Source: a virus. Taken from it: a stretch of 64,000 bases of DNA. Location of the stretch: positions 64,001 to 128,000 of IMG/VR virus record IMGVR_UViG_3300021256_000064; one strand, written 5' to 3'. This document shows positions 3,513 through 35,858 of this stretch, in pieces (position 1 is the stretch's first letter; each line of letters starts with the position of its first letter). The notes beneath the pieces were generated by a model that saw only the letters and a program-made list of their open reading frames with translations, did no database searches and had not been told where the DNA came from. The position numbers and the translations under genes are program-made.

Positions 3513-3806
3513 CAAATGTGAGCTTGTTTTAGGCGGACTTCCTCACTGTTCAACCGCACGCCGGATTTGCATTGGGTCAGGCGCGTGACCTTGACAAGAT
3601 AGTAAGCTCTTTTTCTAAATTTCCTTTTAATAGGTAGGCAACTTTATCAAAAAAATATGAGCCACAAAAAACTTTAGTTCTTTATTGGTTTTTCAGTGAA
3701 TTTCAATTTTTTTAAAATTATATCATCTGATTTTTTTGAATTGCTGTTTTACTATCTTTATTATATATATATTATATCATATATTTTTTAAAAAATCAAT
3801 AAAAAA

Positions 3807-3986
3807 TTAATCTACATAAAAAGTTCTTTTTTCACCACAGCATAAACATGTTACTGTTTGACATTCTACAATTCCACTTGGAAGAAAATTAAAACTATAA
3901 TGTTCGCCTGCTGTTGCATAACTTTTACATTTTTCATTATGATTTTCAACCCATTTATCTAATTTCTCATCTGTTTTAAATACCAT
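3807..3986 (-). CDS. small Cys-rich (CxxC...CxxC) zinc-binding protein
   Basis: RC ATG preceded by AAGGAG; overlaps ORF-track 3959..4168. Confidence 0.45.
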   Translation of the reverse strand: MVFKTDEKLDKWVENHNEKCKSYATAGEHYSFNFLPSGIVECQTVTCLCCGEKRTFYVD

Positions 3987-4049
3987 TTGTATTTCTCCTT
4001 TTTTATTAAAAATACATTGATTTTTTTAATCAAGCCCGCCCAAGAAATT

Positions 4050-4901
4050 TTAGAAAAATTCCTTGAGCAGAGCAGCCCTCCGCGGATTACGGAGTTTCTT
4101 AAGAGCGGTAGCTTCAATCTGACGAACTCGTTCTCTACTAATACCAAGTTCTTTACCAATTTCATCAAGCGTTTTTGCTCTATTCATACCAATACCAAAT
4201 CTATTTTTGATAATAAGCTGCTCGCGGTCAGTCAAAGTATTAAGGATATTCTGAACTGCTTCTTTTCTTTCGTCATCCTCAATATTCATAAAAGAATCTG
4301 CAACAGATTCATCTTCAATAAAAGAACCAACAGTAGTATCCTCGTCATCTCCAATAACTACATCAAGAGAAGAAGTATCTTTCATCCATGAATATGCTTC
4401 TTTAACTTTTTTAATATCAATTCCAAGAGCTTCCGCAATATCTGCTTCTTTCGGCTCTCTGTTATGAGACTGCTGGAAATCTCTTTCAGCTTTTTTAATT
4501 TTACTAATCAATTCAATAACATGAATTGGAATACGAATATTTCTAGTCTGGTCCATAACCGCACGAGAAATAGACTGTTTAATCCAATAGGTTGCATAAG
4601 TAGAAAATCTAAAACCTTTATCAACCTCATACTTTTCTGTTGCTTTAATCAGACCAAAATTACCTTCCTGAATAAGGTCAGAAAGAGTAAGCCCTCGTCC
4701 CATATACTTCTTAGCAATAGAAACAACAAGACGGAGATTATGGTTAATCAAAGCATTCTTTGCTCCCTGATTTCCTTTTGCGGCAGCCTCAGCATATCTT
4801 ACTTCATCCTCTTTTGAAAGAAGATTATACTGGCTAATTTCATTGAGATAAACTTTAATAGAATTAACAGTAGTTGCTTCAGACGCTTTAATTTCTGCCA
4901 T
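4050..4901 (-). CDS. phage-encoded sigma-70 family RNA polymerase sigma factor (regions 2-4 recognisable); no in-frame TAG
   Basis: 283 aa; YATYWIKQSI (region 2.x), TLDEIGKELGISRERVRQIEATALKKLR (region 4.2 HTH); AAGGAG RBS. Confidence 0.85.
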   Translation of the reverse strand: MAEIKASEATTVNSIKVYLNEISQYNLLSKEDEVRYAEAAAKGNQGAKNALINHNLRLVVSIAKKYMGRGLTLSDLIQEGNFGLIKATEKYEVDKGFRFSTYATYWIKQSISRAVMDQTRNIRIPIHVIELISKIKKAERDFQQSHNREPKEADIAEALGIDIKKVKEAYSWMKDTSSLDVVIGDDEDTTVGSFIEDESVADSFMNIEDDERKEAVQNILNTLTDREQLIIKNRFGIGMNRAKTLDEIGKELGISRERVRQIEATALKKLRNPRRAALLKEFF

Positions 4902-4986
4902 AATAAACTCCTTTATGTTTTTTCTATCTTTACTGTATATATATTATATAATAATTTTTTTAAAAAATCAAAAAAGATTTTTTGAA

Positions 4987-5057
4987 TAGGGCATAATGGA
5001 GTCGAACCAGTATCACTGGTTTATAAGACCAGCGCTCTCACCACTGAGCTAATGCCC
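4987..5057 (-). tRNA. tRNA with anticodon UAU (Ile, AUA reader)
   Basis: acceptor GGGGCAT/ATGCCCT, D-arm GCTC..GAGC, anticodon stem CTGGT/ACCAG, loop CTTATAA. Confidence 0.55.
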
Positions 5058-5060
5058 CAT

Positions 5061-5133
5061 ATATCTCATAAGGGAATCGAACCCCTATCTTAACATTCGT
5101 AGTGTTATATTCTGTCCATTAAACTAATGAGAT
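5061..5133 (-). tRNA. tRNA-Arg(ACG)
   Basis: acceptor ATCTCAT/ATGAGAT, anticodon stem TAACA/TGTTA, loop CTACGAA, T-arm AGGGG-TTCGATT-CCCTT. Confidence 0.65.
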
Positions 5134-5134
5134 A

Positions 5135-5434
5135 TTAAGCGCAGTAATAATTTATTTGCCGCGCCACTTTATTTACATAAGCACAAAATGCTTTTGCTTC
5201 ACTTTCTTTTAAAAAATGAAAAGCTAAATAGTCAGAATTTATATAATAATGCAAACCTTTTGCATTAAATTTCTTTAATAAAAGATTAACATAATCTTCA
5301 ACAGAAAGATTAAGGATACGCATTGGAGTGTACCATTTACCTGACCGCCCACCTAAATTTTTGACATCATTAACATGCCATTTTCCTGCAATCTCCCAAT
5401 AGGTCATTTGATAAAGATGAACTCCTGCTCCCAT
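5135..5434 (-). CDS. hypothetical protein (99 aa)
   Basis: ORF track. Confidence 0.5.
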   Translation of the reverse strand: MGAGVHLYQMTYWEIAGKWHVNDVKNLGGRSGKWYTPMRILNLSVEDYVNLLLKKFNAKGLHYYINSDYLAFHFLKESEAKAFCAYVNKVARQINYYCA

Positions 5435-5444
5435 AATTATCTCC

Positions 5445-20563: not shown

Positions 20564-20566
20564 TTT

Positions 20567-21832: not shown

Positions 21833-21849
21833 TGTGAGTATTAGGAGCA

Positions 21850-22660: not shown

Positions 22661-22755
22661 TTGACAAAAAATGCGGCGGTATGATATACTGGAATTTCGG
22701 CGCGAACCGGAGGCTCGCGCCCCGCCCAAAAGCAGGATTTAATAACCCTGCTCTT
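22661..22755 (+). ncRNA. plus-strand unit 3 (promoter TTGACA...TATACT, hairpin GGCGCGA-ACCGGAGGC-TCGCGCC)
   Basis: seen directly; terminator hairpin overlaps stop of 22739..23002. Confidence 0.45.
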
Positions 22756-23002
22756 CTGCTTCAAGATATTCCTCTTTTGAAATTTCTTCAACGTAAGCTT
22801 GAACATGCATTTCATATATTTCAATTTCATCCCAATTATCCATATCTTCGACAAACCGCTCATCAGGATAAGCAAAAGAGTATTCATCACAACAAATCTC
22901 GTCTGCTTCAGCCCAGGCTTCACTTTCAGATTCTGCTTGAATGTAAAAATGTTCATCACAACCACAATAGCCATTTGTGCAAGTTATTTTGTAATATTTC
23001 AT
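22739..23002 (-). CDS. highly acidic Cys-containing small protein (87 aa), DNA-mimic-like composition
   Basis: ORF track. Confidence 0.45.
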   Translation of the reverse strand: MKYYKITCTNGYCGCDEHFYIQAESESEAWAEADEICCDEYSFAYPDERFVEDMDNWDEIEIYEMHVQAYVEEISKEEYLEAEEQGY

Positions 23003-23143
23003 TTTAATACCTCACTTCCAACTAATGTAAAGTTTATAAAAACAAAACTCATGGTGATAATCACAATTTTCATTGTAATTATAACCCCAATAGGGGTCGT
23101 TCCAACGGTTCCAACCAATTTTAATTTTCATTTTTGTCTCCTT

Positions 23144-23371
23144 TCAATCTTCTTCTACAAGTTCCCCAAACAGCTCACATACTTCACGCCATTCACCATC
23201 ATTACTTGCAATAAATTCAAAGATTTCATCATCAGGTTCATCGGGGACGCCATCTCTAATCCAAATATCATAAACAAAGTCATCCCCCATATCAATGATG
23301 TAGTTATGCATACCTTTAAGAAGTTCAATTCTTCTTTCAATCTCACTCTGTTTCGTACTCTTAATTGTCAT
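23144..23371 (-). CDS. acidic small protein (75 aa)
   Basis: ORF track. Confidence 0.45.
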   Translation of the reverse strand: MTIKSTKQSEIERRIELLKGMHNYIIDMGDDFVYDIWIRDGVPDEPDDEIFEFIASNDGEWREVCELFGELVEED

Positions 23372-23608
23372 TTTTTTTATTTCCTTTCTTCTTTTGATGT
23401 TATTAGTATATCATAAGGAATTAGAGTTGTCAACCCCTTATTTTTTCATTTAGGCGGCTGTCGGGATGCGCTGCATCCTTTTTATCCGACATTTAATCAT
23501 CTTCGTCCGGTGACGCTCCGCAGATTTGCGGGTCTTCCGACTTGCATCCAGTGGAACCGCTTATGTTATTAGTATATCATAAGGGGTTGGAGTTGTCAAT
23601 CCCTTATT

Positions 23609-23800
23609 TTATCTTTCTCTAAAGAAATAATCAGTGAGTTCACTTTCATCTTTTTCGCTATAAGGACACATATAAGTTTCACGAGCTTCAGGTGGAAAAT
23701 ATTGAGGGTCATTGTGGTCTGCCCTAAGATAACAATATTTTTCAGGTGTCATTTCTACAACTTTTTCTACTCGCATTATATAAGAGATTTTAACTTTCAT
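23609..23800 (-). CDS. hypothetical protein (63 aa)
   Basis: ORF track. Confidence 0.4.
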   Translation of the reverse strand: MKVKISYIMRVEKVVEMTPEKYCYLRADHNDPQYFPPEARETYMCPYSEKDESELTDYFFRER

Positions 23801-24018
23801 TTGGTGTGTTCCTTTCTTTATCTTATGTATAAATTATAATAAATTTTAGGAAAAATGTCAAGTTGTAATTTTGCACAAAATACAAATCAAAAATTTGTAT
23901 AGTATCACATATTGACAAAACGCATCCCGCGGCGGTCCGTTGCGGGATGCCAAAAGGGGACTGCCTTCTACGACAGCCCCCACACCAAAAGAAAGGAAAA
24001 CAAATATTAGATTCTGAG

Positions 24019-24092
24019 TGAGGGTGAGGGGACTTGAACCCCCGACACCTAGATTAAAAGTCTAGTGCTCTAGCCAACTGAGCTACACCCTC
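24019..24092 (-). tRNA. tRNA-Lys(UUU) embedded in early region
   Basis: acceptor GAGGGTG/CACCCTC, D-arm GCTC-AGTTGGCTAGA-GCAC, anticodon stem CTAGA/TCTAG, loop CTTTTAA, T-loop TTCAAGT. Confidence 0.7.
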
Positions 24093-24246
24093 AAAATGGG
24101 CGGGCTTATATTGCAAGGCGCTCCGCCAGCCTTAGGACTATTCTACTTAGTTCGTTCTTTTAGGCAACTCGGCTTGAATTATCCCATATATAGAAAGCCT
24201 TTTCCTTTAATGCGGTTTTTAAGGATGACCGCAAACCCTTATGGAG

Positions 24247-24603
24247 TTAAGCGTAGGAGAAGTAAGCAACCTTCTTCACCTGTGTTCTGACTACTTTGCC
24301 ATCCTTAATGAGGGCTGTCAGAAGGTGTGTGATTCTCTGGTTCGTCAGCTCTGCAATAGAGGGGCAAACCGCACACAGTTCCTTGATTGTTACAGGCTTG
24401 TCAACCTCAATAAGAGAAGCAATAATGTCAGCCTTGAAGCCATCATTCTCAACCTGTGTCTTTGTGGGCTTGCGAGAAGCGGATTTCTTCTTATCCAGAA
24501 GCTTAATTTCGTTCTGGATGAAAGCTACCATGTCCTCATTCTCAGCTACTGCGGAAACCTTAAGCATTTCATTGTACATTTCTCTCTTCGTCATACTAGA
24601 CAC
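24247..24603 (-). CDS. 117-aa winged-helix-like paralog C
   Basis: ORF track. Confidence 0.6.
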   Translation of the reverse strand: MSSMTKREMYNEMLKVSAVAENEDMVAFIQNEIKLLDKKKSASRKPTKTQVENDGFKADIIASLIEVDKPVTIKELCAVCPSIAELTNQRITHLLTALIKDGKVVRTQVKKVAYFSYA

Positions 24604-24639
24604 CTCTTTCTTTTTTTATGTTTTGTTTTTTCTTTATCT

Positions 24640-25200
24640 TATGTATTTATTATAACTTATTTTTTTTATTTTGTCAAGAGTTTTTTTTATTTTTTTTATT
24701 TTGTTTTCGTGGGTTTGGCGCCTTATACCACGTGGCTGATAGCATTTTTGTTAGCCCCTTACATCCACCCTAACATGGGGCTTAAATCCTAACTCCCATA
24801 CACTTAATGTCCTTTTCTTTGCTTAACTTCTGTATTTATTATATCATATCTTTTTTAATTTGTCAATCACTTTTTTTATTTTTTTTCGGCGGGTCTCTCA
24901 TAAGATTGGCTCCTCTCCTGACTTTACTTACTTCCAACTTGAAAGTATGTCATCAACTTTTTTCGTATTTTTTAAAGTTTTTTCGGCGGGTCTCTCATAA
25001 GAATCAATCCTTTCTTTATCTTATGTATTTATTATACCATAAGATTTTTTATTTGTCAATAGTTTTTTTAAGATTTTTTGAAGTGACTTTCTTTTGTTCA
25101 GATAACCGATAGGCGCGAGGCTCTACCAATCACCCTACTTAATGTTGTTGTCCTTCCTTTATCTTGATATAATTATATCAAAAGTTTTTTAAAAAGTCAA
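24640..25200 (-). promoter_or_regulatory. four consecutive promoter modules without ORFs, separated by GC-richer filler; repeated motif CGGCGGGTCTCTCATAAGA (x2 here, x1 at 30331)
   Basis: TATTATA...TTGTCAA modules at about 24650-24700, 24835-24880, 25025-25070, 25160-25200. Confidence 0.45.
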
Positions 25201-25260
25201 CAACGGAATAATGCACTATTTTTGGGATATTTTTTTGTGCAACTTTTTTTCAAATTTCAC

Positions 25261-25364
25261 TTGACAAAATGTGCGGGACATGGTATAATGGTGATTTCGC
25301 GCCAGGCCGATGGCTGGCGCGCCGCTAATCTTTAAATAAAAAAAGAGGGTGTAAAACCCTCTTA
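25261..25364 (+). ncRNA. plus-strand unit 4 (hairpin GCGCCAG-GCCGATGG-CTGGCGC)
   Basis: TTGACA 25261-66, TGgTATAAT 25284-89. Confidence 0.5.
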
Positions 25365-25583
25365 ATTGCCCATTCTCAATTCTCGATTCAGTTCTCTTAC
25401 AATCCTTTTAGTCTCATCAAGACCGATTGTATTAATGGCTTCATTAATTTTGGAGAGGATTTCACGCTTACACTCATAACGTCTCTGCTCCTGTGCTTTC
25501 TTTTCTCTAATTTCCATTAAATATTTGTGGAGTGCTTCGCGTTCGTCTGCTGTAATAAGGTATCCCATGAATTCGTTTTTCAT
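25362..25583 (-). CDS. hypothetical protein (73 aa)
   Basis: ORF track. Confidence 0.45.
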   Translation of the reverse strand: MKNEFMGYLITADEREALHKYLMEIREKKAQEQRRYECKREILSKINEAINTIGLDETKRIVRELNRELRMGN

Positions 25584-25638
25584 TTTTTTATTTCCTTTCT
25601 TTTTGATGATTTAATTATACTACAGAAATTATTATCTG

Positions 25639-26094
25639 TCAAGACTTTTGTGTAAAAATAATTTCTGTACCAGTATAGAAAGAGCGAGTACTTATGACTT
25701 CTTTTTTAAACCCTTCTAATTCAAATTTATCATTGAGATATTCCTCAATTTTCCAATGGAATTTACTCCAAAAAAGGCGGTCTTTTATTTTTAAATATTT
25801 TTTTGCAAAACCTATAGTCCATCCTATCCCGTTGTCATAAAAGAAAAAGGTTTTATCATCAGGGTTCCAATCACTTATCTGAGGGATGTAATAAGTAAGA
25901 ATCTCATCGGCTCTTTTTTCATCCCAAGTTGTGCGCTCATAATTCCAATTTTTGATTCGGTCGCTAATTTCAACACAAATCCAAATAGGGAAGAGGATGA
26001 TTCTCATTACTTTATAATCATTTTTGTGCCACCAATCGCGGATGAGGTGCTTTTTCTGTTTATCTTCAATAGCTTTTAAGATTTCTTTATTCAT
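25639..26094 (-). CDS. hypothetical protein (151 aa)
   Basis: ORF track. Confidence 0.55.
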   Translation of the reverse strand: MNKEILKAIEDKQKKHLIRDWWHKNDYKVMRIILFPIWICVEISDRIKNWNYERTTWDEKRADEILTYYIPQISDWNPDDKTFFFYDNGIGWTIGFAKKYLKIKDRLFWSKFHWKIEEYLNDKFELEGFKKEVISTRSFYTGTEIIFTQKS

Positions 26095-26159
26095 TTTTTT
26101 ATTTCCTTTCTTTCTTTTGATATATTAATTATACTATGAAAAACTAAAATTGTCAATAG

Positions 26160-26399
26160 TTATTTTATTTTTTCAATAATTAACCAACCGCAATTAATAC
26201 GAGCTGAATCATTAACCCTTTCAATAATAGATGTTCCCCATCCATTAGCTTTTGAAAAAATCATTTGCTTTGCGGAGTCATAAGAGTTAAAAGCATGTGG
26301 ATATTCACCAAATTTAGTTGAAAGGTCATTCTCATCACAAAAGGCTATTACATATTGAGGGGTATTTATTTCTTTTTCTTTAGAAAATATAAAAAACAT
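26160..26399 (-). CDS. hypothetical protein (79 aa)
   Basis: ORF track. Confidence 0.45.
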   Translation of the reverse strand: MFFIFSKEKEINTPQYVIAFCDENDLSTKFGEYPHAFNSYDSAKQMIFSKANGWGTSIIERVNDSARINCGWLIIEKIK

Positions 26400-26465
26400 T
26401 ATTTAGCTCCTTTTCTTTTGATACACTAATTATACAGCATTCTTTTTGGAATGTCAAGGGGATTT

Positions 26466-26909
26466 TTACATCCCCTTGAGAATTTCAATAATTGAGTGGA
26501 CATCGAAAGCCTTGCCTGTCCAGTTTTCTCTGTTCTTAGATTCATCATCGAACAGAATATCATTAGTTGTGTTAGCGAACGTCTGTTTAGGAGTGCCATA
26601 AGGAACAATGTTAATTTCATCGAATTTTACACTTGCCAGATGCTTATTAAGCCATGCCATTTTAGCTTCCGTTACTTTTGTATCGTATGATGCGGTGGAT
26701 GTTTTAGAAAGCCAAGAGATAACGCCGATTCTGTAGCCCTGTTTCTGAAGTCTATTCAAAATGCGGGCAAGTGAATTGAGGTTGACAAGTGGCTTTGCAT
26801 TAGCGTACGGGAACGGGTCATATGCTCTAAGAAGGGGAAGCCAATTGGGGACACTGTAAAGGTCTGCGATTGTACCGTCCATATCAAAGTAGATTGTAGT
26901 AGCTGTCAT
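26466..26909 (-). CDS. HAD-superfamily phosphatase (5'-nucleotidase-like)
   Basis: FDMDGTIAD DxDGT motif near N-terminus; GAGGAG RBS. Confidence 0.65.
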   Translation of the reverse strand: MTATTIYFDMDGTIADLYSVPNWLPLLRAYDPFPYANAKPLVNLNSLARILNRLQKQGYRIGVISWLSKTSTASYDTKVTEAKMAWLNKHLASVKFDEINIVPYGTPKQTFANTTNDILFDDESKNRENWTGKAFDVHSIIEILKGM

Positions 26910-27036
26910 GTTTCTGTTCTCCTCTCTCTTGATGATACTATTATAGCATGGGGGCATTGGGGTGTCAACTATTTTCAATAAAAAAGTTGCACAAATTATG
27001 GGATAAAAATTTGTATTTTTTTGTGCAAAATTTCGC

Positions 27037-27134
27037 TTGACAAAATGGTGCGGCATGTGGTATAATGGTTGAACGGGCTGCGCCCGGCCGCCCCCGCGGC
27101 GACGAAAAAATAGAGGTAATTACCCCTATTTTTT
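27037..27134 (+). ncRNA. plus-strand unit 5
   Basis: TTGACA 27037-42, TATAAT 27061-66, GC tract GGGCTGCGCCCGGCCGCCCCCGCGGCG, terminator AGAGGTAATTACCCCT+T6. Confidence 0.5.
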
Positions 27135-27405
27135 AAATATGATAAAGTTTTCCGTCAAGGACGTAGATGACACCCTCAGAACCATCATACTCGTCAATCT
27201 CCCAATCAGTAGCTTCATCCGGAATATCTACAATAGCAAGTCGGGCACAATGACCATTTGCGGCTTTCCCTAAAGTGTTAACTACCTCGATTAGACGAGG
27301 GTCTGTTCGAGAGATTAGAGGATAACGAGTTTTAAACCCAAGCATCTGCAAAGCTTCATCTGAAAGACCAAAACCGCCAAAACAAGTATTAATGCAAATC
27401 TTCAT
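27133..27405 (-). CDS. hypothetical protein (90 aa)
   Basis: ORF track. Confidence 0.5.
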   Translation of the reverse strand: MKICINTCFGGFGLSDEALQMLGFKTRYPLISRTDPRLIEVVNTLGKAANGHCARLAIVDIPDEATDWEIDEYDGSEGVIYVLDGKLYHI

Positions 27406-27438
27406 TTTTTATTTCCTCTCTTTTCTTTATCTTATGTA

Positions 27439-27624
27439 TTAATTATAGCCTGCTTCTTTCATTTTGTCAAGCATTTTTTGAGAAGTTTTTAAATATTTAT
27501 ATTTTCTATTTTCTTCACACCAGGGGCAACCGCCATGATTTCTGCATCTTTTAGAAATTGCTTTTCCGCCAGAATAGGGGCGCCGATGTTCTTTTCCACT
27601 TGTGATTGATTTCATTAAAGACAT
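27439..27624 (-). CDS. small basic zinc-ribbon protein (61 aa)
   Basis: ORF track; CRNHGGCPWC. Confidence 0.45.
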   Translation of the reverse strand: MSLMKSITSGKEHRRPYSGGKAISKRCRNHGGCPWCEENRKYKYLKTSQKMLDKMKEAGYN

Positions 27625-28163
27625 TTTTATTTACCCCCTTTTTAATTTTCCTTAAGGTTTTTATAAAGTTCCGCCAGTTGCTCATACAGAACTCCAATTT
27701 CATAATCCAATTTAATTCTTTTTGCAAAACTCCGGCACTTATTATAAGCACGTCTTTTATCTTTAAGCTGTTTCTCTATCTCATCAATCTGAATTCTTGT
27801 CATTGTTTTAACTTCCTTTCTCTTGATGATATAATTATACTATAGGGGTTGAGATTTGTCAACCCCTATTTTAATTTTTTAATTCGGGAAGGCTTCCATC
27901 ATAGCCTTGTACTCATCAGGTGTCTTTGCCAGTCTATCAACAATACGCCACCAAAGATCCATTCGGTCAGAAATATTGGACTTATGACCAACCAGATATT
28001 CAAAATTTTCGATTGTTTTGTTGTAGATTGCGATTGCTTCTTCCATGTCTGTGTTCTCCTCTCTCTTGATGATACTAGTATAGCATAGCCTACATAAGAA
28101 GTCAAGTAAAATATTGCACAAATTTGGGAATTTTTTCAGCTAATTTTTTGTGCAAATTGCCAA

Positions 28164-28257
28164 TTGACAAAAGTTGGAAGGTATGCTATAATGGTTCGGC
28201 GGGCAGGCCCCGGCTGCCCGCGCGCCACTCAAAAAAGAGGGCTTAAGCCCCCTTTCT
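28164..28257 (+). ncRNA. plus-strand unit 6 (hairpin GCGGGCAG-GCCCCGG-CTGCCCGC)
   Basis: TTGACA 28164-69, TATAAT 28187-92, terminator AGAGGGCTTAAGCCCCCTTTCT. Confidence 0.5.
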
Positions 28258-28434
28258 GGCTCTCTCACGTCTCTTCTTTTCAGCTTTCAGTGCGTGCTCC
28301 CGCATCTGAAGCTTCACATTTTCTGGAGTTTCGTCTACAGGAAGCAGGTGAACCGCCTTAATACCCTCAGCCTTAGCAGTTGCAAAATTCTCAGTTACCT
28401 TACCGCCCTTTGTCTCGTATCTAACTGTTCTCAT
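28243..28434 (-). CDS. hypothetical basic protein (63 aa)
   Basis: ORF track. Confidence 0.45.
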   Translation of the reverse strand: MRTVRYETKGGKVTENFATAKAEGIKAVHLLPVDETPENVKLQMREHALKAEKKRRERARKGA

Positions 28435-28503
28435 TCTAATTTCTCCTTTTCTTTTGTTATCTTATATATAAATTATACTATTTTTCTTTTAAGTTGTCAA
28501 CAA

Positions 28504-28692
28504 TTATTTTTCATTTTCAAAAGGAACGTTTAAAGCTACAACCATAGCCAGTGTTACGATTTCATCAGAAACTGCTTTGTTTTCCGCCAGATTGCAAAAC
28601 CAAATTGTAGTTTCGTCCTCTAATCCTCTAAAAGTTGCGACCTTATTTTCCATTTCCATTCTAGACATAATTAATCCTCCATTTTGATCCAT
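28504..28692 (-). CDS. hypothetical protein (62 aa)
   Basis: ORF track. Confidence 0.4.
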   Translation of the reverse strand: MDQNGGLIMSRMEMENKVATFRGLEDETTIWFCNLAENKAVSDEIVTLAMVVALNVPFENEK

Positions 28693-28734
28693 ATATGAGG
28701 GGTTCGGTTCGTTTACCGAACCCCTAACCAGTTA

Positions 28735-28920
28735 TCAGATTCTAGCAAGAATCTTTGACATGATTTCATTGTGTGCGTTAAGAGCATCCATATACAGGCT
28801 ATCAGCTCTGCACCATGCTTCGAAGTTGTTTGCCCTTGTAGCTCTGACCAGTTCGGCATATGCACGATTAAGTTCTGTTCTAAGTTCCTGTTCCTTTGCT
28901 CTCATTTCTGTAAGTGTCAT
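28735..28920 (-). CDS. hypothetical protein (61 aa)
   Basis: ORF track; similar to 32146..32328 (MT..EMRAKE..L...AY.L..A). Confidence 0.45.
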   Translation of the reverse strand: MTLTEMRAKEQELRTELNRAYAELVRATRANNFEAWCRADSLYMDALNAHNEIMSKILARI

Positions 28921-29178
28921 TTTTGTTTTCCTCTCTTTCTTTATCTTATGTACTTATTATACATGATGTTTTTTATTTTGTCAAGGGGTTTTTTATTTTT
29001 TTTCAAGTTTCCAGATTGGATTTTTTGTTGTATCCCGTGTGCCGTCGGCATTGAAGAACCAAATTGCGCGATAATTATCCATTGAAATAATTACCATATT
29101 GCCAAACTCTTTTATTTGATAGCCACGGCTTCTATGAATACGAATGAATTTGTCTTTTGTCATTTTTTTGTTCTCCTT

Positions 29179-29361
29179 TCAAAAACCAATGTAGTGGTCA
29201 AACTGTCCGTCAATCCGACATTCAATGTACCAATCTTCTTCAGAACACATATCTTCTTCTAAAAGACAGCCAAAAGCGTGAGCATTTTCGTAAGAAGTAA
29301 ATGTATCTTCTTTAAAATGATGTCCCATACAATCAATCACCCACACCACATATTCAAACAT
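29179..29361 (-). CDS. acidic Cys/His small protein (60 aa)
   Basis: ORF track. Confidence 0.4.
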   Translation of the reverse strand: MFEYVVWVIDCMGHHFKEDTFTSYENAHAFGCLLEEDMCSEEDWYIECRIDGQFDHYIGF

Positions 29362-29449
29362 TTTTTTGTTCTCCTCTCTTGTTTCTGATATAATGATACT
29401 ACTTTTTTAGTCACTTGTCAAAGGATTTTTTTAATTTTTATGCGGTTTA

Positions 29450-29732
29450 GCATTTTGCACAAAAAGGCTTTAAAAAGTTTGTGCAATTTGCTATTTTTAT
29501 TTTTAGCTATTGACAAAAAATTTTTTGTGCAAACTGCACAATAACAGAGTGCTTCACTTGTGTAGTTTGCACAACTCCAGAAAAGTCAAGTAGAAATGTT
29601 GCACAAAAATGGGGCAGTTTTGGGCGTTCTTTTTGTGCAATTTGACGAGAAGCACATCTGCACCGATCTGTCAATGGGCAAATTGCACAAATTTGGGAAA
29701 AAATTGCGCTTAATCTTTGTGTAATTTGCCTA
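29450..29732. promoter_or_regulatory. dense array (8 or more) of TTGCACAAA / TTTGTGCAA operator half-sites upstream of unit 7 promoter
   Basis: seen directly. Confidence 0.6.
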
Positions 29733-29815
29733 TTGACAAAACCGCGAGGGTATGGTATAATGGTTGAACGGGCAAAGCCCGTGCGCCCACGGCGCGCCGA
29801 GCAAGAGCCGGAGCT
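29733..29815 (+). ncRNA. plus-strand unit 7 (hairpins ACGGGC-AAA-GCCCGT and GCGCC-CAC-GGCGC)
   Basis: TTGACA 29733-38, TGgTATAAT 29756-61. Confidence 0.45.
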
Positions 29816-30009
29816 TAGGAGAAGAATCTATTCCAAGCTTCCCACTCCTCAGTCCAGAGGTCCTCGATGTCTGTCCAATCGAGGTTCTCATCTCCGCTCA
29901 GCATAGCCGAACGAGCAAAGGCTGTAGCTTCCATAGCCTTGCGGTACTGCTCTACCTTGCGGTTTGTGAGGGTTGCTGTGATGCCGTCTGCGATAATGAT
30001 TGTTGTCAT
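29815..30009 (-). CDS. acidic small protein (64 aa)
   Basis: ORF track. Confidence 0.45.
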   Translation of the reverse strand: MTTIIIADGITATLTNRKVEQYRKAMEATAFARSAMLSGDENLDWTDIEDLWTEEWEAWNRFFS

Positions 30010-30094
30010 TTTTTTATCTCCTCTCTCTTGATGATTTTATTATATCAGATGGGATTGTTTTTGTCAACTACTTTTTTTTATTTTTTTTAGCGGA

Positions 30095-30180
30095 GCGAGT
30101 GGGAGTTGAACCCAAGAGAACTACTTGCTAGCATTTTCGTTCCCAGACGTCACCGTCTACCTACTTCCGTTCGGCTTACC
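30095..30180 (-). ncRNA. promoter-driven tRNA-like RNA (T-loop GGGTTCAACTCCC) occupying the slot where a module normally carries a CDS
   Basis: promoter 30185-30235 has ATCATCGGAAGG in place of RBS; transcript lacks ORF. Confidence 0.35.
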
Positions 30181-30418
30181 CTTCCGATGATTTTATTATA
30201 TCAAAGACTTTTTAGTTTGTCAACTACTTTTTTTATTTTTTGGTGAGGGATGGGAACTTGTCCGCTCACCGTGCCTGTATTCATCGCGCCCTAATGTCCC
30301 CAGGCTCTGGCGCATTTCTTTGGTTTGTTGGTTTTTACGGCGGGTCTCTCATTTCTGTGTTCCTCTCTTTTGATGATTTTATTATATCAGGTGGGGTTGA
30401 TTTTGTCAACCCCTTTTT

Positions 30419-30565
30419 TCAATTTTTTTCTTCTATTGTCATGTACTCTTCATAACCGAGGTTATCCCAAGCAGTATCTACATATTCGCAAGCCTCTTCA
30501 TAAGAATCGAATACTTCATCTACACTCCAGTTTCCACAGCAATCCATGAACCATACTTCGTACAT
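30419..30565 (-). CDS. acidic Cys-containing small protein (about 48 aa)
   Basis: internal ATG of ORF 30419..30622. Confidence 0.35.
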   Translation of the reverse strand: MYEVWFMDCCGNWSVDEVFDSYEEACEYVDTAWDNLGYEEYMTIEEKN

Positions 30566-30734
30566 TTTTGTTCTCCTCTCTCTTGATGATTCTATTATAT
30601 CAGATAGGTTGAAGTTTGTCAACCTTTTATTTTTATTTTTTAGAAGTTTTTGATATGAGTGGGAGATTTTCGACTTAGTTTAAAACTTACTCGCCTCGTC
30701 TGGGTGAACTTGCTTTAAAACACCCTTCGAAGTA

Positions 30735-30790
30735 AAGGAAGGAATCGAACCTTGTGTTGCTGTCAGCCTTTCTGACTGCCTTTACCTTAT
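30735..30790 (-). ncRNA. mini tRNA-like RNA at +1 of a promoter module: acceptor-like, D-arm-like and T-arm (AAGG-TTCGATT-CCTT) but no anticodon arm
   Basis: RC GGTAAAGGCAGTCAGAAAGGCTGACAGCAACACAAGGTTCGATTCCTTCCTTTACT. Confidence 0.3.
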
Positions 30791-31494
30791 GTTTTTATTA
30801 TACCAGAGGGGTTGAGGTTTGTCAACCCCTCTTTTTCATTTTTTTAATTTTCTTTGAGAAGCTCTTCAGCGATTTCCTCGGCTTCCGCCTCGGTGATTTC
30901 GTTGTATGCTACCATTCTGACCAGTTCTTCGAACATCATGTACTTCATTTTGCGTTCCTCGCTTTCTTTATCTTATGTACTTATTATATCAGATGTTTTG
31001 TAGTTTGTCAACTACTTTTTTTATTTTTTTGAAGCTTTCTACATTTCAGATGAACAACCGGCGCTTGGCTCGTCCGCCCACCCTATTCTGTTTTGTTGCT
31101 TCCTTTCTTTTGATGATTTAATTATATCATGGGGCTTGGCTTTTGTCAAGCCCCTTTTTTAATTTTTTTAAAAGATTTTTACGACTTTTCTGTCATCGTT
31201 ATCGTTATCTGTTGTGATAACCGCTGTTGTAGCATCTACATCTACAATACCATCCCAACCGCCATCCATAGCTGTCTGAACCGGAATGTTAAGTGCGTTA
31301 TTTGCTACTGCCCAGTTATAAAGATCCATGATTGTCATTTTTTTTACTTCCTTTCGTTTGTGTTTTTGTTTTCCTTTGATGATATAAGTATACCATCCTA
31401 GGTTTCTGTTGTCAATAGTTTTTTAAAAATCATATCAAAAATATTGCACAAAAATAGGAATTTATTTTTGTACATTTTGACGAATAAATTAGTC

Positions 31495-31606
31495 TTGACA
31501 AACTGCGTTGTAGTGTGGTATAATTTTCACGGCCTCCAGCCGTTCGTTTGTGGTTGCTAATCTTATTAGTTAATAAAAAGATAAGAGCGTTTCCGCTCTT
31601 ATCTTA
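31495..31606 (+). ncRNA. plus-strand unit 8 (hairpin ACGGC-CTCCA-GCCGT; terminator AGATAAGAGCG-TTTC-CGCTCTTATCT)
   Basis: TTGACA 31495-500, TGgTATAAT 31519-24. Confidence 0.5.
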
Positions 31607-31904
31607 CCTCGTTATATTTATTTCTTGTGTGTTCTTTTGCCAGTGCTAAAAGGTCTGTCGGGATTGTTTCATTTTCGTTGTAGTATCTTCTAATCTGTCC
31701 TGGTCTAGCGATTAATCTAGTTACCATTTTCTTTGTTCTTTCATTGTAGATTGTAATGATTGCTGTTGAGCTAATCACGTGGATTTCAGCACCGTTGCGA
31801 TGTCCTCTGTCTACTCTAACTTCCTTTACTGGTGTTCCTTCACCGATCTGCTGAATAAGTTCTTCTCTTGCTTTTCTATCTTTTGTGTAATGCTTGCTTG
31901 TCAT
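31599..31904 (-). CDS. hypothetical protein (101 aa)
   Basis: ORF track. Confidence 0.5.
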   Translation of the reverse strand: MTSKHYTKDRKAREELIQQIGEGTPVKEVRVDRGHRNGAEIHVISSTAIITIYNERTKKMVTRLIARPGQIRRYYNENETIPTDLLALAKEHTRNKYNEVR

Positions 31905-32044
31905 GTCTTTGTTCTCCTTTGCTTTTGTTTTCTTTTGATGATACTATTATAACGCTTACTTTATTAGTTGTCAATAGGTTTTCAACAAAAATATTGCACA
32001 ATTTTAGGTGATTTATTTTGTTACTTTTGACGAATAACTTAGTC

Positions 32045-32140
32045 TTGACAAACTGCATCGTTGTGTGGTATGCTGTTTCGGTGTCCGAACGACTGTTCAC
32101 GTTAGCAAATAAGTAAAAGCCTAACTTTCGTTAGGCTTTT
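32045..32140 (+). ncRNA. plus-strand unit 9 (promoter near-identical to unit 8, -10 TATGCT; terminator AAAAGCCTAAC-TTTCG-TTAGGCTTTT)
   Basis: seen directly. Confidence 0.45.
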
Positions 32141-32145
32141 ATTCT

Positions 32146-32328
32146 TTATACTCTATCGAGCAGTTCGCTTGTGGCGTCCAGCCATTCACGAGAAGCTTTC
32201 ATGTAGTTATCGTTTGCTAACATCCATGTTTCTGCATCAGCTGTTTTTGCTTCGATAAGCTGATTAAATGCGTAATCCATGTTTGCCTTAAGTTCCTTGC
32301 ATCTCATTTCCATAGCCTTTACTGTCAT
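32146..32328 (-). CDS. hypothetical protein (60 aa)
   Basis: ORF track. Confidence 0.45.
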   Translation of the reverse strand: MTVKAMEMRCKELKANMDYAFNQLIEAKTADAETWMLANDNYMKASREWLDATSELLDRV

Positions 32329-32439
32329 TGTTTTGTTCTCCTTTTCTTTTGTTTGAGGTTTCTTTCCTCATCTCTTGAATACATTATACTGCTAAGTAGT
32401 TCACTTGTCAATACTTTTTTATAAAAAATATTATCTTTT

Positions 32440-33654: not shown

Positions 33655-33657
33655 CTC

Positions 33658-33840
33658 TTAATCCTTCACATTTTCCCAATTAAGCGGGGTTCCACAGTGC
33701 CCGCAAGTTTCTCTTTCCCAATTTGCGGAATCTCTATAAAAAGCAGCTCCGCACGTCGGACACCAAACAACATTCTTTTCATCTTCTCTAATTACAACAT
33801 TCTTTTCATTCATTTCCTTCTTACCTCTCCTTTTAATCAA
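33658..33840 (-). CDS. zinc-ribbon small protein (60 aa)
   Basis: ORF track; CPTCG...CGHCG. Confidence 0.45.
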   Translation of the reverse strand: MIKRRGKKEMNEKNVVIREDEKNVVWCPTCGAAFYRDSANWERETCGHCGTPLNWENVKD

Positions 33841-33981
33841 AACATCTTGCCGCCAAATTTACAAGCAACATAATCCAACACAAAACATAATTAACAATAG
33901 AAATCTCTCCACCATTAGCGGCGTTCGCAATATTAATTACTCCAATAAAAATCCAAAGTATCAATAACAACATATCCATTT

Positions 33982-34314
33982 TTATTCATCCTTATCCGCC
34001 ACATAATCAGCGATTCTTTCAATAGTATCTTCTACCTTATCCAAATTTTCTGCGGTGACCTGTGATGCAATAATCATTTTATAACAAGTACTCTGTGAAG
34101 GAATAGCTACTGCAAAAATCATAAAAATAATTCCAATAATTGTAACTATTTTTGTTTTCTTATCCCACCAAAAAGATCTTATTTCTCCAGCCTTCCATAA
34201 ACCCCATATACATGCTACATAAACAAAAGCAGTTATTGCAAAAATAATAGCAACAGCCTTTATTCCCTCACATATTTCAGCAAAATAAAAAATCCACGGA
34301 TTTACAATAAACAT
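33982..34314 (-). CDS. multi-TM membrane protein (110 aa)
   Basis: ORF track. Confidence 0.5.
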   Translation of the reverse strand: MFIVNPWIFYFAEICEGIKAVAIIFAITAFVYVACIWGLWKAGEIRSFWWDKKTKIVTIIGIIFMIFAVAIPSQSTCYKMIIASQVTAENLDKVEDTIERIADYVADKDE

Positions 34315-34316
34315 TC

Positions 34317-34673
34317 TTATACTCCTTTTCTTTCAGGTAGATTTAAAATTTCATCAATTGGTGCGGATCTCCATATAACTCTCCACCAATTATTTTCATC
34401 ACGATACCCACTATAACAATGTGATGCTTGAGGAGAGCCAGAAAGCGGGCTCCAATCAATTAAACAATCACTGCAGTCCCCATCTTTCTGCTCATCATAT
34501 TCACACAAAAAACAATGAGCCATTACATCTTTAAAATTATGTTCTGCGCACCATTTTTCTTTAAATTTTCTTCTATCAAAACCATCAGGATTATTACCTA
34601 ATTCCGCCCGCATATCACTCCACATCCGCCGATGAAGCTCTAGCGCTCTTTCTTTTGTTAATTTCTCTTTCAT
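34317..34673 (-). CDS. hypothetical Cys/His/Trp-rich protein (118 aa)
   Basis: ORF track. Confidence 0.5.
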   Translation of the reverse strand: MKEKLTKERALELHRRMWSDMRAELGNNPDGFDRRKFKEKWCAEHNFKDVMAHCFLCEYDEQKDGDCSDCLIDWSPLSGSPQASHCYSGYRDENNWWRVIWRSAPIDEILNLPERKGV

Positions 34674-35062
34674 TATACAAGTCCTTTGTTTGCGGCTTCA
34701 ATCTCAGGATTTTCTTTTGAATATCCCCTAGGCGGAGTTGGCTTTTTTAGCATACCATAAGTTTCAAGTGTTACAAGTCTATCACGCATACTAAAAGTAT
34801 AGTCATAGATTTCATTATTAATATCTACCTGACGCTGACGCTCAGCTCTCCATTCTGCAAGTTTCTTCCCATAAGATTCATCCCAGGTATCCTGCGGGCA
34901 GCATTTCGCAATTCCTTTATAAATGCGAACATCTTCAATATCATCATATTTATCATCACCAAGTCCATATTTTTCAATTCTAGTGATAAAATCATCAACT
35001 GTAGTAATGATACAAACAACTGTGCGCTTCTTTTCATTTACAATAAATTCTGTAGTTACCAT
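34673..35062 (-). CDS. hypothetical protein (129 aa)
   Basis: ORF track. Confidence 0.5.
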   Translation of the reverse strand: MVTTEFIVNEKKRTVVCIITTVDDFITRIEKYGLGDDKYDDIEDVRIYKGIAKCCPQDTWDESYGKKLAEWRAERQRQVDINNEIYDYTFSMRDRLVTLETYGMLKKPTPPRGYSKENPEIEAANKGLV

Positions 35063-35343
35063 GCGGTTTTGCAGGTATATGGCCGTCTCATACCTGCCGC
35101 CTCCTTTTCTCTTTAGTCTTTAATATTTTATTTATTTATCATTTACAAGTATATTATATTATAAATTTTTTAATTTTTCAAAATAGTAAAAAATATATCA
35201 AACTCCGCAAATTCTAAATCTTGCTCTTTACCTTCTTCTGTTGTTATAAAAAATTTTCCTTTACGCTCTTGATAATTGTAAACTTTATTTTTTACAAAGC
35301 TTCCTTTATTAAGAGTTAAATTATAATTTGCTTTAACTTTCAT

Positions 35344-35772
35344 TTATCTTAACCCCATATATTCAATAATTTGTTTATTTTTTTCAATAGCATAATTCCT
35401 TGTTATGAATGTTCCTCCACCGCCAACACCGTCCCATACACACAAGAGAGTATCTGCATTATCCACCATAAAACGGTCTCTAACAAAATATGCCATTTTT
35501 GAATATTTATCAGAAATAAAAGCAATATGATTTCCTTCCATAATCCACTTTTCTGTTGGTGAATAATACTTTTTGGGAAATGGATAGCAGCAAACTATAG
35601 GTATATCCAACTCCTTTGCGGCTGTTGCTATAATTTGATCAGTCCCTTGTGCCATGCCGTCAAAAATCAATGATGGCTGAAGGCGAGTAAGCTGCTCCAC
35701 CGCCCACTTTTTTACTAGTTTCTCTTGTCCTTTTAATCGTCCTGGTCGATGTCCTGTTACAGCTAAAATCAT
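35344..35772 (-). CDS. SLOG / DUF1273 (YpsA-like) family protein
   Basis: 142 aa; N-terminal VTGHRPxRL and GGG(G)T motifs. Confidence 0.5.
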   Translation of the reverse strand: MILAVTGHRPGRLKGQEKLVKKWAVEQLTRLQPSLIFDGMAQGTDQIIATAAKELDIPIVCCYPFPKKYYSPTEKWIMEGNHIAFISDKYSKMAYFVRDRFMVDNADTLLCVWDGVGGGGTFITRNYAIEKNKQIIEYMGLR

Positions 35773-35858
35773 TTTTTATTTTCCTCTTTCATTTTTACTA
35801 TACAATTATTATACAAAATTTTTTTAAAAAAATCAATTAAGGTATGCTTAAAACTAGA

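Follow-up and report, generated by a model that had tools for sequence, protein, structure and literature searches.

A 15-kb array of consensus-promoter cassettes with small-protein and noncoding cargo in a large phage with recoded late genes

What could be gained by packing dozens of consensus promoters into a few kilobases of a phage genome, most of them in front of very small genes and about a third in front of no gene at all? This question is raised by a 64,000-nt stretch (the window) of the IMG/VR virus record IMGVR_UViG_3300021256_000064, positions 64,001-128,000, which belongs to a large (~140 kb) uncultivated phage whose late genes are TAG-recoded; all coordinates below are window positions. 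The sequence TTGACA-N16-18-TATAAT occurs 43 times in the window, compared with 0.14 occurrences expected from dinucleotide-preserving shuffles. Forty of these 43 perfect sites lie within 17261-32411 (33 on the minus strand and 7 on the plus strand), and allowing a single mismatch brings the minus-strand promoters of this interval to 41 (33 perfect and 8 with one mismatch). A dense, promoter-driven cassette region, as proposed in a preliminary description of this DNA, is therefore present, but the span of 3600-35800 given for it was too wide. The segments 3.6-17.2 kb and 32.4-35.8 kb are nearly promoter-free, and since they hold only one perfect promoter (5970-5942) and one one-mismatch site (at 35181), the array measures about 15 kb (17.26-32.41 kb) and not 32 kb:

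17261..32411, minus strand: early promoter-cassette array with 41 sigma70/SigA-consensus promoters, 36 small open reading frames (ORFs), about 14 noncoding inserts and one tRNA

We consider it quite probable that this interval is an early accessory region, presumably for host takeover, made of about 40 self-contained cassettes that are exchanged by recombination between their promoters and modules. In such a region each cassette would consist of an UP-element-like A-tract, a TTGACA-17-TATAAT promoter, often with an extended -10 TG, a leader with a strong Shine-Dalgarno sequence, and cargo; about one cassette in three would carry a small RNA and the others a small ORFan protein. Judging from the promoter sequences, the SigA-type RNA polymerase of the host would fire all cassettes immediately after infection, and the cargo would then act on the host. 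Because each cassette would be expressed independently, cassettes could be gained, lost or moved without disturbing their neighbours. The promoter/leader (tens of nt) and a larger regulatory module (100-200 nt, 70-85% identity) may serve as portable homology because they recur dozens of times, and recombination within them would delete, insert, transpose and horizontally exchange cargo.

The strongest indications for such exchange come from a comparison with 21 IMG/VR loci that encode relatives of two core early genes. Nearly all of these loci carry 8-26 perfect promoters per 10-20 kb, many of them together with promoter-hairpin units on the opposite strand. The closest relative, IMGVR_UViG_3300021400_001206, represented by the loci L019 and L191, shares blocks that are ~75-95% identical to the window; it is colinear with it at 12-17 kb and at 31.4-35.8 kb and rearranged within the array. 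Two of the differences could be resolved to the base, and involve the following cassettes:

30419..30622, minus strand: cassette with a 48-aa acidic ORF, promoter 30622-30594; the whole unit is missing from the closest relative
30243..30409, minus strand: noncoding cassette N3, a 5-codon mini-ORF (MRDPP and a stop; motif ATGAGAGACCCGCCG) and ~110 nt of RNA, promoter 30409-30381
30093..30223, minus strand: noncoding cassette N4, a ~96-nt RNA ending in a T arm (GGUUCAACUCC, 30112-30102) and then CUCGCUCCGCUA, promoter 30223-30195; missing from the closest relative
29815..30067, minus strand: cassette with a 64-aa acidic ORF, promoter 30067-30039

In L191, promoter 30622 with its upstream flank runs straight into the leader and cargo of promoter 30409; the 48-aa ORF is gone along with one promoter, and the crossover falls inside TATAAT..ATCATCAAGAGAGAGGA. 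In the same relative, the leader and ORF of promoter 30067 directly follow the flank that precedes promoter 30223 in the window, again with the switch in the promoter/leader, and the T-loop RNA cassette that lies between them in the window (30223-30093) is gone. Larger pieces have also moved: blocks ordered A-B-C-D-E in the window are ordered A-C-B-E in the relative, with the junctions inside the repeated regulatory modules, numbered M1 to M8 in the window. The junction modules of the relative are hybrids, one combining an M5 side with an M4 side (switch near L019 3200-3300) and a second combining an M4 side with an M2 side (switch near L019 9750-9800). Finally, the cassette at 18186-17917 is 85% identical in a distant relative, L006, where it sits in a different neighbourhood and where other common DNA is 65-74% identical; the match ends within 1 nt of two promoters. 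The shuffling of cargo at a repeated module, which the preliminary description had put forward, is thus supported by two precise cassette indels, by block transpositions and hybrid modules, and by a cassette shared with L006; strict synteny of the cargo was not seen.

The promoter element itself is less uniform than had been described. An A-tract lies upstream of the -35, with aaaAaaattaAAAAAA as the AT-rich consensus before TTGACA; the -35 consensus is TTGACAAA, and a TG one base before the -10 is common. The leader and ribosome-binding site (RBS) first described, ..AAATCATCAAAAGAAAGGA, is indeed conserved (12 array copies), but a second class, ..AAATACATAAGATAAAGAAAGGA, with 13 array copies, had been overlooked. 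Calling the modules near-identical was an overstatement: their mean pairwise identity is 55% over 72 nt (from 12 nt before the -35 through +31), and the longest exact common run between two modules has a median of 10 nt and a maximum of 47 nt, reaching 15 nt or more in 11% of pairs. A hairpin of -5 kcal/mol or lower extends across the -35 and spacer in 11 of 40 sense promoters. In a terminator scan, hairpins overlapping the -35 were predicted, together with the sense A-tract, to form intrinsic terminators for the plus strand; because the T-run is on the plus strand, they would be terminator-like only for antisense transcription:

30393-30413, 30606-30625, 30805-30832 and 31131-31154, plus strand: predicted intrinsic terminators, each made of a sense -35 hairpin and A-tract
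27842-27869 and 23579-23607, plus strand: two further predicted terminators of the same build

The closest known parallel is that of the promoter-early stem-loops (PeSLs) in the hyperplastic regions of T4-like phages (Arbiol et al. 2010, PMC2839356; Comeau et al. 2014, PMC4122927), and the analogy drawn earlier fits their published definition (PMC2839356). In both systems there are dozens of sigma70-consensus promoters with an AT-rich upstream tract and an adjoining or overlapping stem-loop, a Shine-Dalgarno sequence and start codon precede small ORFans concentrated in a variable region, and close relatives differ by indels or replacements with junctions in the repeated element. The array differs in belonging to an unrelated lineage with a Clostridia-type host signal and TAG-recoded late genes, in the small RNAs carried by a third of its cassettes, and in having a second, larger repeated unit, the divergent module with operators and a back-facing promoter-hairpin. 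Since the sequence in common is the host promoter consensus, the resemblance to PeSLs is a functional one and probably convergent. Another parallel is the host-takeover module of the Bacillus phage SPO1, which, as summarized in PMC6873191, has ~26 genes in the 12.4-kb terminal redundancy, several with demonstrated host-shutoff functions (Stewart et al. 1998). Small early genes are clustered in both and, going by the same summary (PMC6873191), have very strong host-type promoters and ribosome-binding sites; the RNA cargo and antisense units of the array set it apart from SPO1 as portrayed there.

A rival account of the cargo turnover is ordinary gene gain and loss, selected to fall between genes, with the promoters marking the boundaries and not acting as the substrate. 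We regard this as rather unlikely. In both base-resolved indels the flanks are continuous to two window promoters and the switch occurs inside the conserved -10/leader, and at three junctions the relative has a module that combines two modules of the window. On the other hand, 59% of block ends lie within 40 nt of a promoter as compared with 34% of random positions, but they are no nearer to promoters than random intergenic positions are (67%). As the block-end statistic does not exceed the intergenic background, the case for promoter-mediated exchange rests on the resolved junctions; outside the base-aligned ones, recombination at promoters cannot be separated from selection for breaks between genes. 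Besides these statistics, several further points weigh against our reading of the array. A module identity of ~55% and a median exact run of 10 nt are short for RecA-type recombination. No anti-host function, such as the anti-defence or host-takeover role suggested earlier, could be assigned to any cargo protein by Pfam and PHROG searches of 20 of them and one structure prediction. The phage has an RpoD-like sigma factor of its own that could read these promoters. Moreover, the -35 hairpins are predicted to terminate the opposite strand, whereas PeSL terminators were reported on the sense strand.

The sigma factor deserves separate consideration. It is encoded at 4901-4050 on the minus strand, contains regions 1.2, 2, 3 and 4, and matches the RpoD C-terminal model with 307 bits; its gene adjoins a cluster of at least 10 tRNA genes at 300-5134. 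Such a protein should recognise -35/-10 promoters of this kind, and the array could in principle be a middle-phase, sigma-takeover regulon read mainly by the phage sigma and not an immediate-early one. This appears to us still less likely than plain gene turnover. The sigma gene lies far downstream of the array and lacks its own consensus promoter, so that transcription must be initiated by something else. In addition, known arrays of this type are transcribed by the host, and Ruminococcus chromosomes hold the same promoter consensus. The last point emerged when the extended promoter pattern was run against bacterial and archaeal genomes. The matches were phage-like contigs, for the most part binned with Clostridia of rumen and gut (Ruminococcus, Oscillospiraceae, Acutalibacteraceae), as well as single chromosomal promoters of the same consensus in Ruminococcus genomes. 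From the contig binning and these promoters, a Clostridia host from rumen or gut, with a SigA-type polymerase, is the most likely setting for an array of early cassettes exchanged through their promoters. In six Ruminococcus genomes or metagenome-assembled genomes (L140, L141, L143, L154, L168 and L186) the single promoter stands before a conserved leader, ..GGGACAGAGGTGGGTnnnTACCACA.., which probably serves these bacteria as a regulatory RNA leader and hints at the identity of the phage's host.

What do the cassettes carry? Twenty-seven of the 41 minus-strand promoters precede an ORF whose start codon lies 29-55 nt past the -10. The claim that a promoter stands before almost every gene is right for the 27 of the 36 array ORFs found directly behind one and does not apply to the other nine, which are second or third genes of short operons. 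The ORFs, intact in the standard code, are small as had been noted (median 63 aa, range 34-235) and often acidic (isoelectric point below 5 in 14) or Cys-rich (at least 4 Cys in 5). Beyond the closest relative, only ~6 of the 36 recur: the nucleotidase, the exonuclease, the winged-helix family, the 130-aa and the 61-aa Cys-rich proteins, and a few others. Among 20 cargo proteins, Pfam and PHROG matches were limited to a 5' deoxyribonucleotidase-like protein (26909-26466), a DEDD exonuclease-like protein (21520-20813) and two PHROGs of unknown function, with almost no matches for the remainder; searches of PDB sequences with two conserved cargo proteins gave no match. An AlphaFold model of an acidic 87-aa protein had a predicted local distance difference test (pLDDT) score of 68 and no meaningful match to a viral fold. 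Three 113-115-aa paralogues of the array, with a fourth outside it, were more informative. The model of a 115-aa member reached a pLDDT of 83.6, and all top PDB fold matches to its C-terminal half were winged-helix DNA-binding domains, albeit with weak E-values of 0.01-0.05; these paralogues are accordingly modelled as winged-helix proteins. The other sense cassettes, from the upstream end of the array, are:

32146..32411, minus strand: cassette with a 60-aa ORF (32328-32146), perfect promoter 32411-32383, bidirectional terminator 32141-32114
31599..31974, minus strand: cassette with a 101-aa basic ORF, promoter 31974-31946, terminator 31605-31578
31168..31415, minus strand: cassette with a 56-aa acidic ORF, one-mismatch promoter 31415-31387; missing from the closest relative
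31033..31149, minus strand: noncoding N1, ~80-nt hairpin RNA with apex GAGCCnnnGCGCC, promoter 31149-31121; paralogue at 25200-25085
30844..31011, minus strand: cassette with a 34-aa acidic ORF, promoter 31011-30983
30650..30825, minus strand: noncoding N5, acceptor-like helix, hairpin and T arm (GGUUCGAUUCC, 30751-30741), promoter 30825-30797
28993..29421, minus strand: cassette with 60- and 56-aa ORFs, promoter 29421-29393
28504..28984, minus strand: cassette with 61- and 54-aa ORFs, promoter 28984-28956
28243..28500, minus strand: cassette with a 63-aa basic ORF, promoter 28500-28472
27879..28105, minus strand: sense promoter of module M6 (28105-28077, 10/12 matches) and a 55-aa ORF
27439..27862, minus strand: cassette with a 53-aa ORF and a 61-aa basic Cys-rich ORF (the latter kept in 7 relatives), promoter 27862-27834
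27133..27470, minus strand: cassette with a 90-aa ORF (phrog_16527), promoter 27470-27442
26466..26968, minus strand: cassette with the 147-aa 5' deoxyribonucleotidase-like protein, a core early gene in all relatives, promoter 26968-26940
26160..26457, minus strand: cassette with a 79-aa ORF, promoter 26457-26429
25639..26156, minus strand: cassette with a 151-aa ORF, promoter 26156-26128
25362..25642, minus strand: cassette with a 73-aa ORF, promoter 25642-25614, terminator 25363-25343
25085..25200, minus strand: noncoding N1b, the N1 small RNA again, behind the sense promoter of module M4
24880..25059, minus strand: noncoding, two ATGAGAGACCCGCCG mini-ORF motifs (24998-24984, 24901-24887), promoter 25059-25031
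24700..24866, minus strand: noncoding N6, ~130-nt RNA, promoter 24866-24838
23900..24677, minus strand: cassette with a 115-aa winged-helix paralogue (24594-24247), a 155-nt spacer, tRNA-Lys(UUU) 24092-24018 and a G+C-rich hairpin, promoter 24677-24649
23609..23861, minus strand: cassette with a 63-aa ORF, promoter 23861-23833
23450..23599, minus strand: noncoding N7, ~115-nt structured RNA (fold z-score -1.9), promoter 23599-23571
22739..23433, minus strand: cassette with 75-, 39- and 87-aa ORFs (the 75- and 87-aa ones very acidic), promoter 23433-23405
22482..22590, minus strand: noncoding N8, ~85-nt RNA on the sense side of M3, extended -10 TGATATAAT at ~22581-22573
22295..22459, minus strand: N9, 130 nt without an ORF having a well-spaced RBS, promoter 22459-22431
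21850..22271, minus strand: cassette with a 115-aa winged-helix paralogue, promoter 22271-22243
20813..21664, minus strand: M2 sense promoter 21664-21636, then promoter 21581-21553 and the 235-aa DEDD-type exonuclease-like protein, a core early gene
20387..20794, minus strand: cassette with 56- and 58-aa ORFs, promoter 20794-20766, terminator 20378-20353
19985..20186, minus strand: two noncoding cassettes, N10 (promoter 20186-20158) and N11 (promoter 20100-20072)
19536..19959, minus strand: cassette with a 113-aa winged-helix paralogue, promoter 19959-19931, terminator 19525-19502
19032..19486, minus strand: cassette with a 130-aa ORF kept in relatives, promoter 19486-19458, terminator 19015-18981
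17338..18837, minus strand: four cassettes (promoters 18837, 18544, 18185 and 17924) with ORFs of 78, 93 (10 Cys), 67, 47, 60 and 60 aa

Cassettes without an ORF, noted before, account for 14 of the 41 minus-strand promoters, with gaps of 55-175 nt to the next promoter. Their inserts had been taken for noncoding filler, which does not agree with the conservation of several of them. N7 (23564-23450) is 98% identical in L019, N11 (20065-19985) is 84-99% identical in five relative loci, N6 is 91.6% identical in L019 and also kept in L004, and N8 is conserved in three loci (L003, L005 and L018). N1, present twice in the window, also occurs in L019 and L006; the four sequences share one hairpin with the apex GAGCCnnnGCGCC, and 6 of its 19 pairs show compensatory changes. 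N9 has no homologue among the relatives and could encode a 32-aa peptide, although with a poorly spaced RBS. Because single-sequence folds of most noncoding inserts are not better than shuffles, RNA structure is supported for N1 alone and weakly for N7. From their conservation, these inserts are best read as small-RNA genes and not as filler. A repeated motif reported earlier within some of them is real: the 15-mer ATGAGAGACCCGCCG has three copies in the window (30338-30352, 24984-24998 and 24887-24901, minus strand), compared with 0.01 expected, and occurs also at L019 3550-3564. Each window copy lies 10-15 nt past a Shine-Dalgarno-like sequence and could encode a 5-8-codon MRDPP.. peptide with a Pro-Pro stalling motif.

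The same conservation bears on the idea that the array is chiefly a sink which draws host RNA polymerase away from host promoters, its cargo being secondary. With ~50 consensus promoters in 15 kb, a third of them without an ORF, and with back-facing promoters that would yield only short RNAs, the array has the features such a sink would have. Noncoding inserts are, however, conserved up to 98-99%, the structure of N1 is kept through compensatory changes, and the fold of the hairpins described below is maintained despite sequence change. We hold the sink to be improbable as the main function.

Two noncoding cassettes had been described as carrying tRNA-like fragments. The T-loop motif GGTTCRANTCC occurs 12 times in the window, compared with 0.17 expected, and nine of these lie within called tRNAs. 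Two others are canonical T-loops inside promoter-driven noncoding cassettes (GGTTCGATTCC at 30741-30751 and GGTTCAACTCC at 30102-30112), so that part of the description stands; as tRNAs they do not, since the RNAs 30790-30715 and 30188-30093 form no cloverleaf recognised by ARAGORN or by the Rfam tRNA and transfer-messenger RNA (tmRNA) models. A further T-loop outside the called tRNAs, at 98-108 on the minus strand, probably belongs to a tRNA gene that was missed or is cut by the window edge. The 30790 RNA (N5) starts near +1 and is predicted to form a helix of 8-9 bp with the sequence after its T arm, and one more hairpin. The helix is retained in the homologues in L191 (94.7% identity), L002 and L062, and the middle hairpin of L002 differs in sequence yet folds; a search of IMG/VR for further members of this family returned just the contig already known. 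In the 30188 RNA (N4) no convincing acceptor helix was seen.

Such RNAs are not confined to the window. In 1.8 Mb of fetched loci, 12 non-tRNA T-loop motifs lie within 260 nt of a perfect promoter, and none of these promoter-near RNAs is recognised as a tRNA or tmRNA. They include a minimal form in L062, in which a T arm accompanies a perfect terminal helix of 7 bp, and one in L024 with the terminal helix GGGGCGAG/CUCGCUCC and a G3.U pair. The acceptor/T-arm minihelices of tRNA and the tRNA-like domain of tmRNA are natural comparisons. The T-loop RNAs share with them the GGUUCRANUCC loop on a 4-5 bp stem, which would be stacked on a predicted terminal helix between the 5' end and the sequence after the T arm; they differ from tRNA and tmRNA in having no anticodon arm, D arm or encoded CCA. 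The array also holds a complete tRNA, tRNA-Lys(UUU) at 24092-24018 on the minus strand, which by its position is co-transcribed with the winged-helix paralogue upstream of it; the same order is found in L019 (4368-4443) and L006 (6633-6704). One may speculate that an early tRNA-Lys(UUU) counters anticodon nucleases that target tRNA-Lys. In searches of Rfam 15 with gathering and with permissive thresholds, no family but tRNA came up to the gathering score, and for hairpin units and noncoding cargo nothing has an E-value below 5 except two 15-25-nt tmRNA fragments (E 0.5-1.2).

The cassettes are organised by a second repeated element. Eight plus-strand promoters with an extended -10 (7 perfect and 1 with one mismatch, mostly TGTGGTATAAT), whose -35 elements start at 20247, 21733, 22661, 25261, 27037, 28164, 29733 and 31495, are each followed directly by a G+C-rich hairpin, and two minus-strand promoters, 18957 and 17290, share this design:

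20247..20315, plus strand: antisense unit M1, G+C-rich structured start, extended -10 promoter 20247-20276
21733..21795, plus strand: antisense unit M2, 10-bp hairpin GCGCGCCAAC/GUUGGCGCGC, promoter 21733-21762
22661..22721, plus strand: antisense unit M3, 7-bp hairpin, promoter 22661-22690
25261..25321, plus strand: antisense unit M4, 8-bp hairpin, promoter 25261-25289
27037..27104, plus strand: antisense unit M5, G+C-rich structured start, promoter 27037-27066
28164..28221, plus strand: antisense unit M6, 8-bp hairpin, promoter 28164-28192
29733..29800, plus strand: antisense unit M7, G+C-rich hairpins, promoter 29733-29761
29440..29740, either strand: long spacer of M7 with 7 exact copies of the octamer described below, densest at 29455-29690
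31495..31543, plus strand: antisense unit M8, a weaker version with a 5-bp hairpin at 31529-31543, promoter 31495-31524
18885..18957, minus strand: sense promoter-hairpin unit, GGCCCGGUG/CGCCGGGCC and then AUUUGUC, promoter 18957-18929
17200..17290, minus strand: sense promoter-hairpin-terminator unit closing the array, promoter 17290-17261, G+C-rich hairpin, terminator 17219-17205

Each plus-strand unit lies just past the bidirectional terminator of a sense block and forms one end of a divergent module of ~180 bp, the other end being a sense promoter that often has TTGACT for TTGACA. From this arrangement of modules and terminators, the array can be viewed as a series of blocks, each running from a module through several cassettes to a bidirectional terminator. 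Between the divergent promoters is an octamer, TTGCACAA/TTGTGCAA, with 20 copies in the window (3.5 expected), 17 of them inside modules. Its copies range from 21683 to 32001, and in the inverted pairs at 21683/21707, 26987/27021 and 28114/28148 the spacing is 24 or 34 bp. A related TGTGC motif overlaps the spacer of the back-facing promoters. The octamer is likely an operator for a phage regulator, possibly the winged-helix paralogues; these are the obvious candidates for occupying the TTGCACAA sites and would thereby set the timing of the module promoters.

The back-facing promoter would start transcription at the foot of a 7-11 bp G+C-rich hairpin and give a short RNA. A scan of IMG/VR with the pattern TTGACAAA-N10-11-TGTGGTATAATGG retrieved at least 118 loci, and among the matches listed 67 of 132 show the promoter followed by GGAAWTTC, a perfect G+C-rich stem, and a C-rich and then A-rich tail. 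Pooling the loci gave at least 167 distinct promoter-hairpin units in at least 80 loci, 153 of them with an extended -10 TG; the stem has a median of 9 bp (7-16) and the loop a median of 8 nt, and the hairpin usually begins 7-8 nt past the -10, which is the expected start of transcription. The units fold better than dinucleotide shuffles (mean z-score -2.0, with 55% below -2), and stem sequences differ among units while the fold is retained. No consensus fold was obtained on a MAFFT alignment, in which register shifts occur. With a hand-given structure and a covariance model, ~60% of cells are paired, and covariation is above that in all 500 shuffles and modestly above slid controls. Formal covariation is modest because stem and loop lengths vary, and given this weak alignment-based signal we take support from the perfect stems of individual units and from the shuffle z-scores. 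Mismatches in the stems show no bias of G.U over A.C (16 and 13, respectively) and hence no sign of selection on the RNA of one strand alone. In nine loci of other large phages (L048, L072, L090, L095, L112, L053, L035, L042 and L078) one G+C-rich hairpin lies between two face-to-face extended -10 promoters; their -10 elements are only ~45 bp apart, and two polymerases would exclude each other or collide.

What these units do is a matter on which we can offer only graded opinions. They may make abundant, stable short RNAs protected by a 5'-terminal hairpin, or they may act purely in cis, either by conferring nut/put-like terminator resistance, allowing antisense run-through by late plus-strand transcription, or as a roadblock or insulator between blocks. 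A role in cis is possible, if somewhat doubtful. The eight units face the plus-strand late genes and are followed by terminators, the hairpin is at the very start of the transcript, plus-strand terminators lie inside the sense promoters as though to contain antisense transcription, some relatives have face-to-face promoters around a single hairpin, and the near-equal numbers of G.U and A.C mismatches give no sign of strand-specific selection on an RNA. Nevertheless, sense-oriented units with a terminator of their own (17290-17200) look like stand-alone small-RNA genes, the stems vary widely in sequence, and no candidate antiterminator protein was identified. It is for these stand-alone sense-oriented copies that we favour an RNA product, while giving it less than an even chance.

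Phages offer precedents for both possibilities. Lambda OOP and P22 sar are short antisense RNAs made from a constitutive promoter of their own, convergent with the 3' end of a neighbouring mRNA and ended by a terminator. The hairpin units resemble them in their short transcript, their own promoter, and an overlap with the 3' end of a neighbour followed by a terminator; unlike OOP and sar, they occur in about ten copies per genome and in both orientations, have a 5'-terminal G+C-rich hairpin of variable sequence, and overlap a terminator or 3' untranslated region only. Lambda nut and HK022 put are promoter-proximal RNA elements. The units are similar to these in placing a structured RNA directly after a strong promoter and before terminators, and differ in having a single simple hairpin, no recognised boxA-like element and no identified factor. 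A third suggestion, that the G+C-rich hairpins imitate repeats of clustered regularly interspaced short palindromic repeat (CRISPR) systems, as RNA anti-CRISPRs, or some other host RNA, would suit short hairpin RNAs that each have a strong promoter in a phage early region. We rejected the CRISPR-repeat mimic, since stems differ between units of one genome and a mimic should match one host repeat, and there is no Rfam match; imitation of this kind is highly improbable. To our knowledge, the hairpins also lack the 3' handles by which repeats of types I-C and I-E are conserved.

Neither Rfam nor a literature search yielded an account of the antisense hairpin units, of the T-loop minihelix RNAs or of the operator modules. 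The small-RNA layer is the part of the array most likely to be new. Tentatively, one may go further: the hairpin units could be widespread new small-RNA genes or cis elements of large gut and rumen phages, the T-loop minihelices and tRNA-Lys(UUU) could be tRNA mimics that counter tRNA-targeting defences, and the array would then be an RNA-based toolkit as much as a protein-based one. More broadly, our findings extend promoter-mediated modular shuffling, documented in T4-like coliphages and vibriophages, to unrelated recoded phages of gut and rumen, and suggest that strong host-consensus promoters are a general vehicle for the exchange of early genes. They also provide a catalogue of ~36 early proteins that are ORFans and of roughly a dozen small RNAs defined by their promoters; two families among these RNAs, the G+C-rich hairpin units and the T-loop minihelices, are met again in many phages. 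The cassettes are compact candidates for host-takeover and anti-defence screens, and for strong portable expression parts in Clostridia.

The remainder of the window places the array in its genome. A megablast of the array and a tblastn of one late protein gave no hit at all among deposited phages; the TAG-recoded phAss-1 group (PMC10607447) was considered as a possible relative. The plus strand from 35.9 kb encodes virion genes, including the portal protein and a virion structural protein. In-frame TAGs interrupt these late genes (35852-64000, plus strand): the portal gene has 6, and two paralogues of ~1000-1250 aa that resemble tail fibres have 13-14. Long ORFs reappear when TAG is read as sense, which also lengthens the PHROG match of the portal from profile positions 192-471 (171 bits) to 57-495 (275 bits), and a tRNA with the anticodon CTA is present at 1180-1253 on the minus strand. 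A perfect consensus promoter at 35859-35887 (plus strand) opens the late region and points away from the early genes; as TAG is the third codon of the first ORF behind it, translation of that ORF would depend on the suppressor tRNA. Between the array and the late genes, the noncoding segment 32480-32910 contains at least 12 iterons of approximately ACTTTAACGCGGTGAAGTG, in both orientations and spaced by 23-24 bp or multiples of this. They are preceded by an 8-bp AT-rich tandem repeat (32484-32543), and one iteron-like copy is found at ~20313-20331. From its layout, this iteron array may be a replication origin or a protein-binding array.

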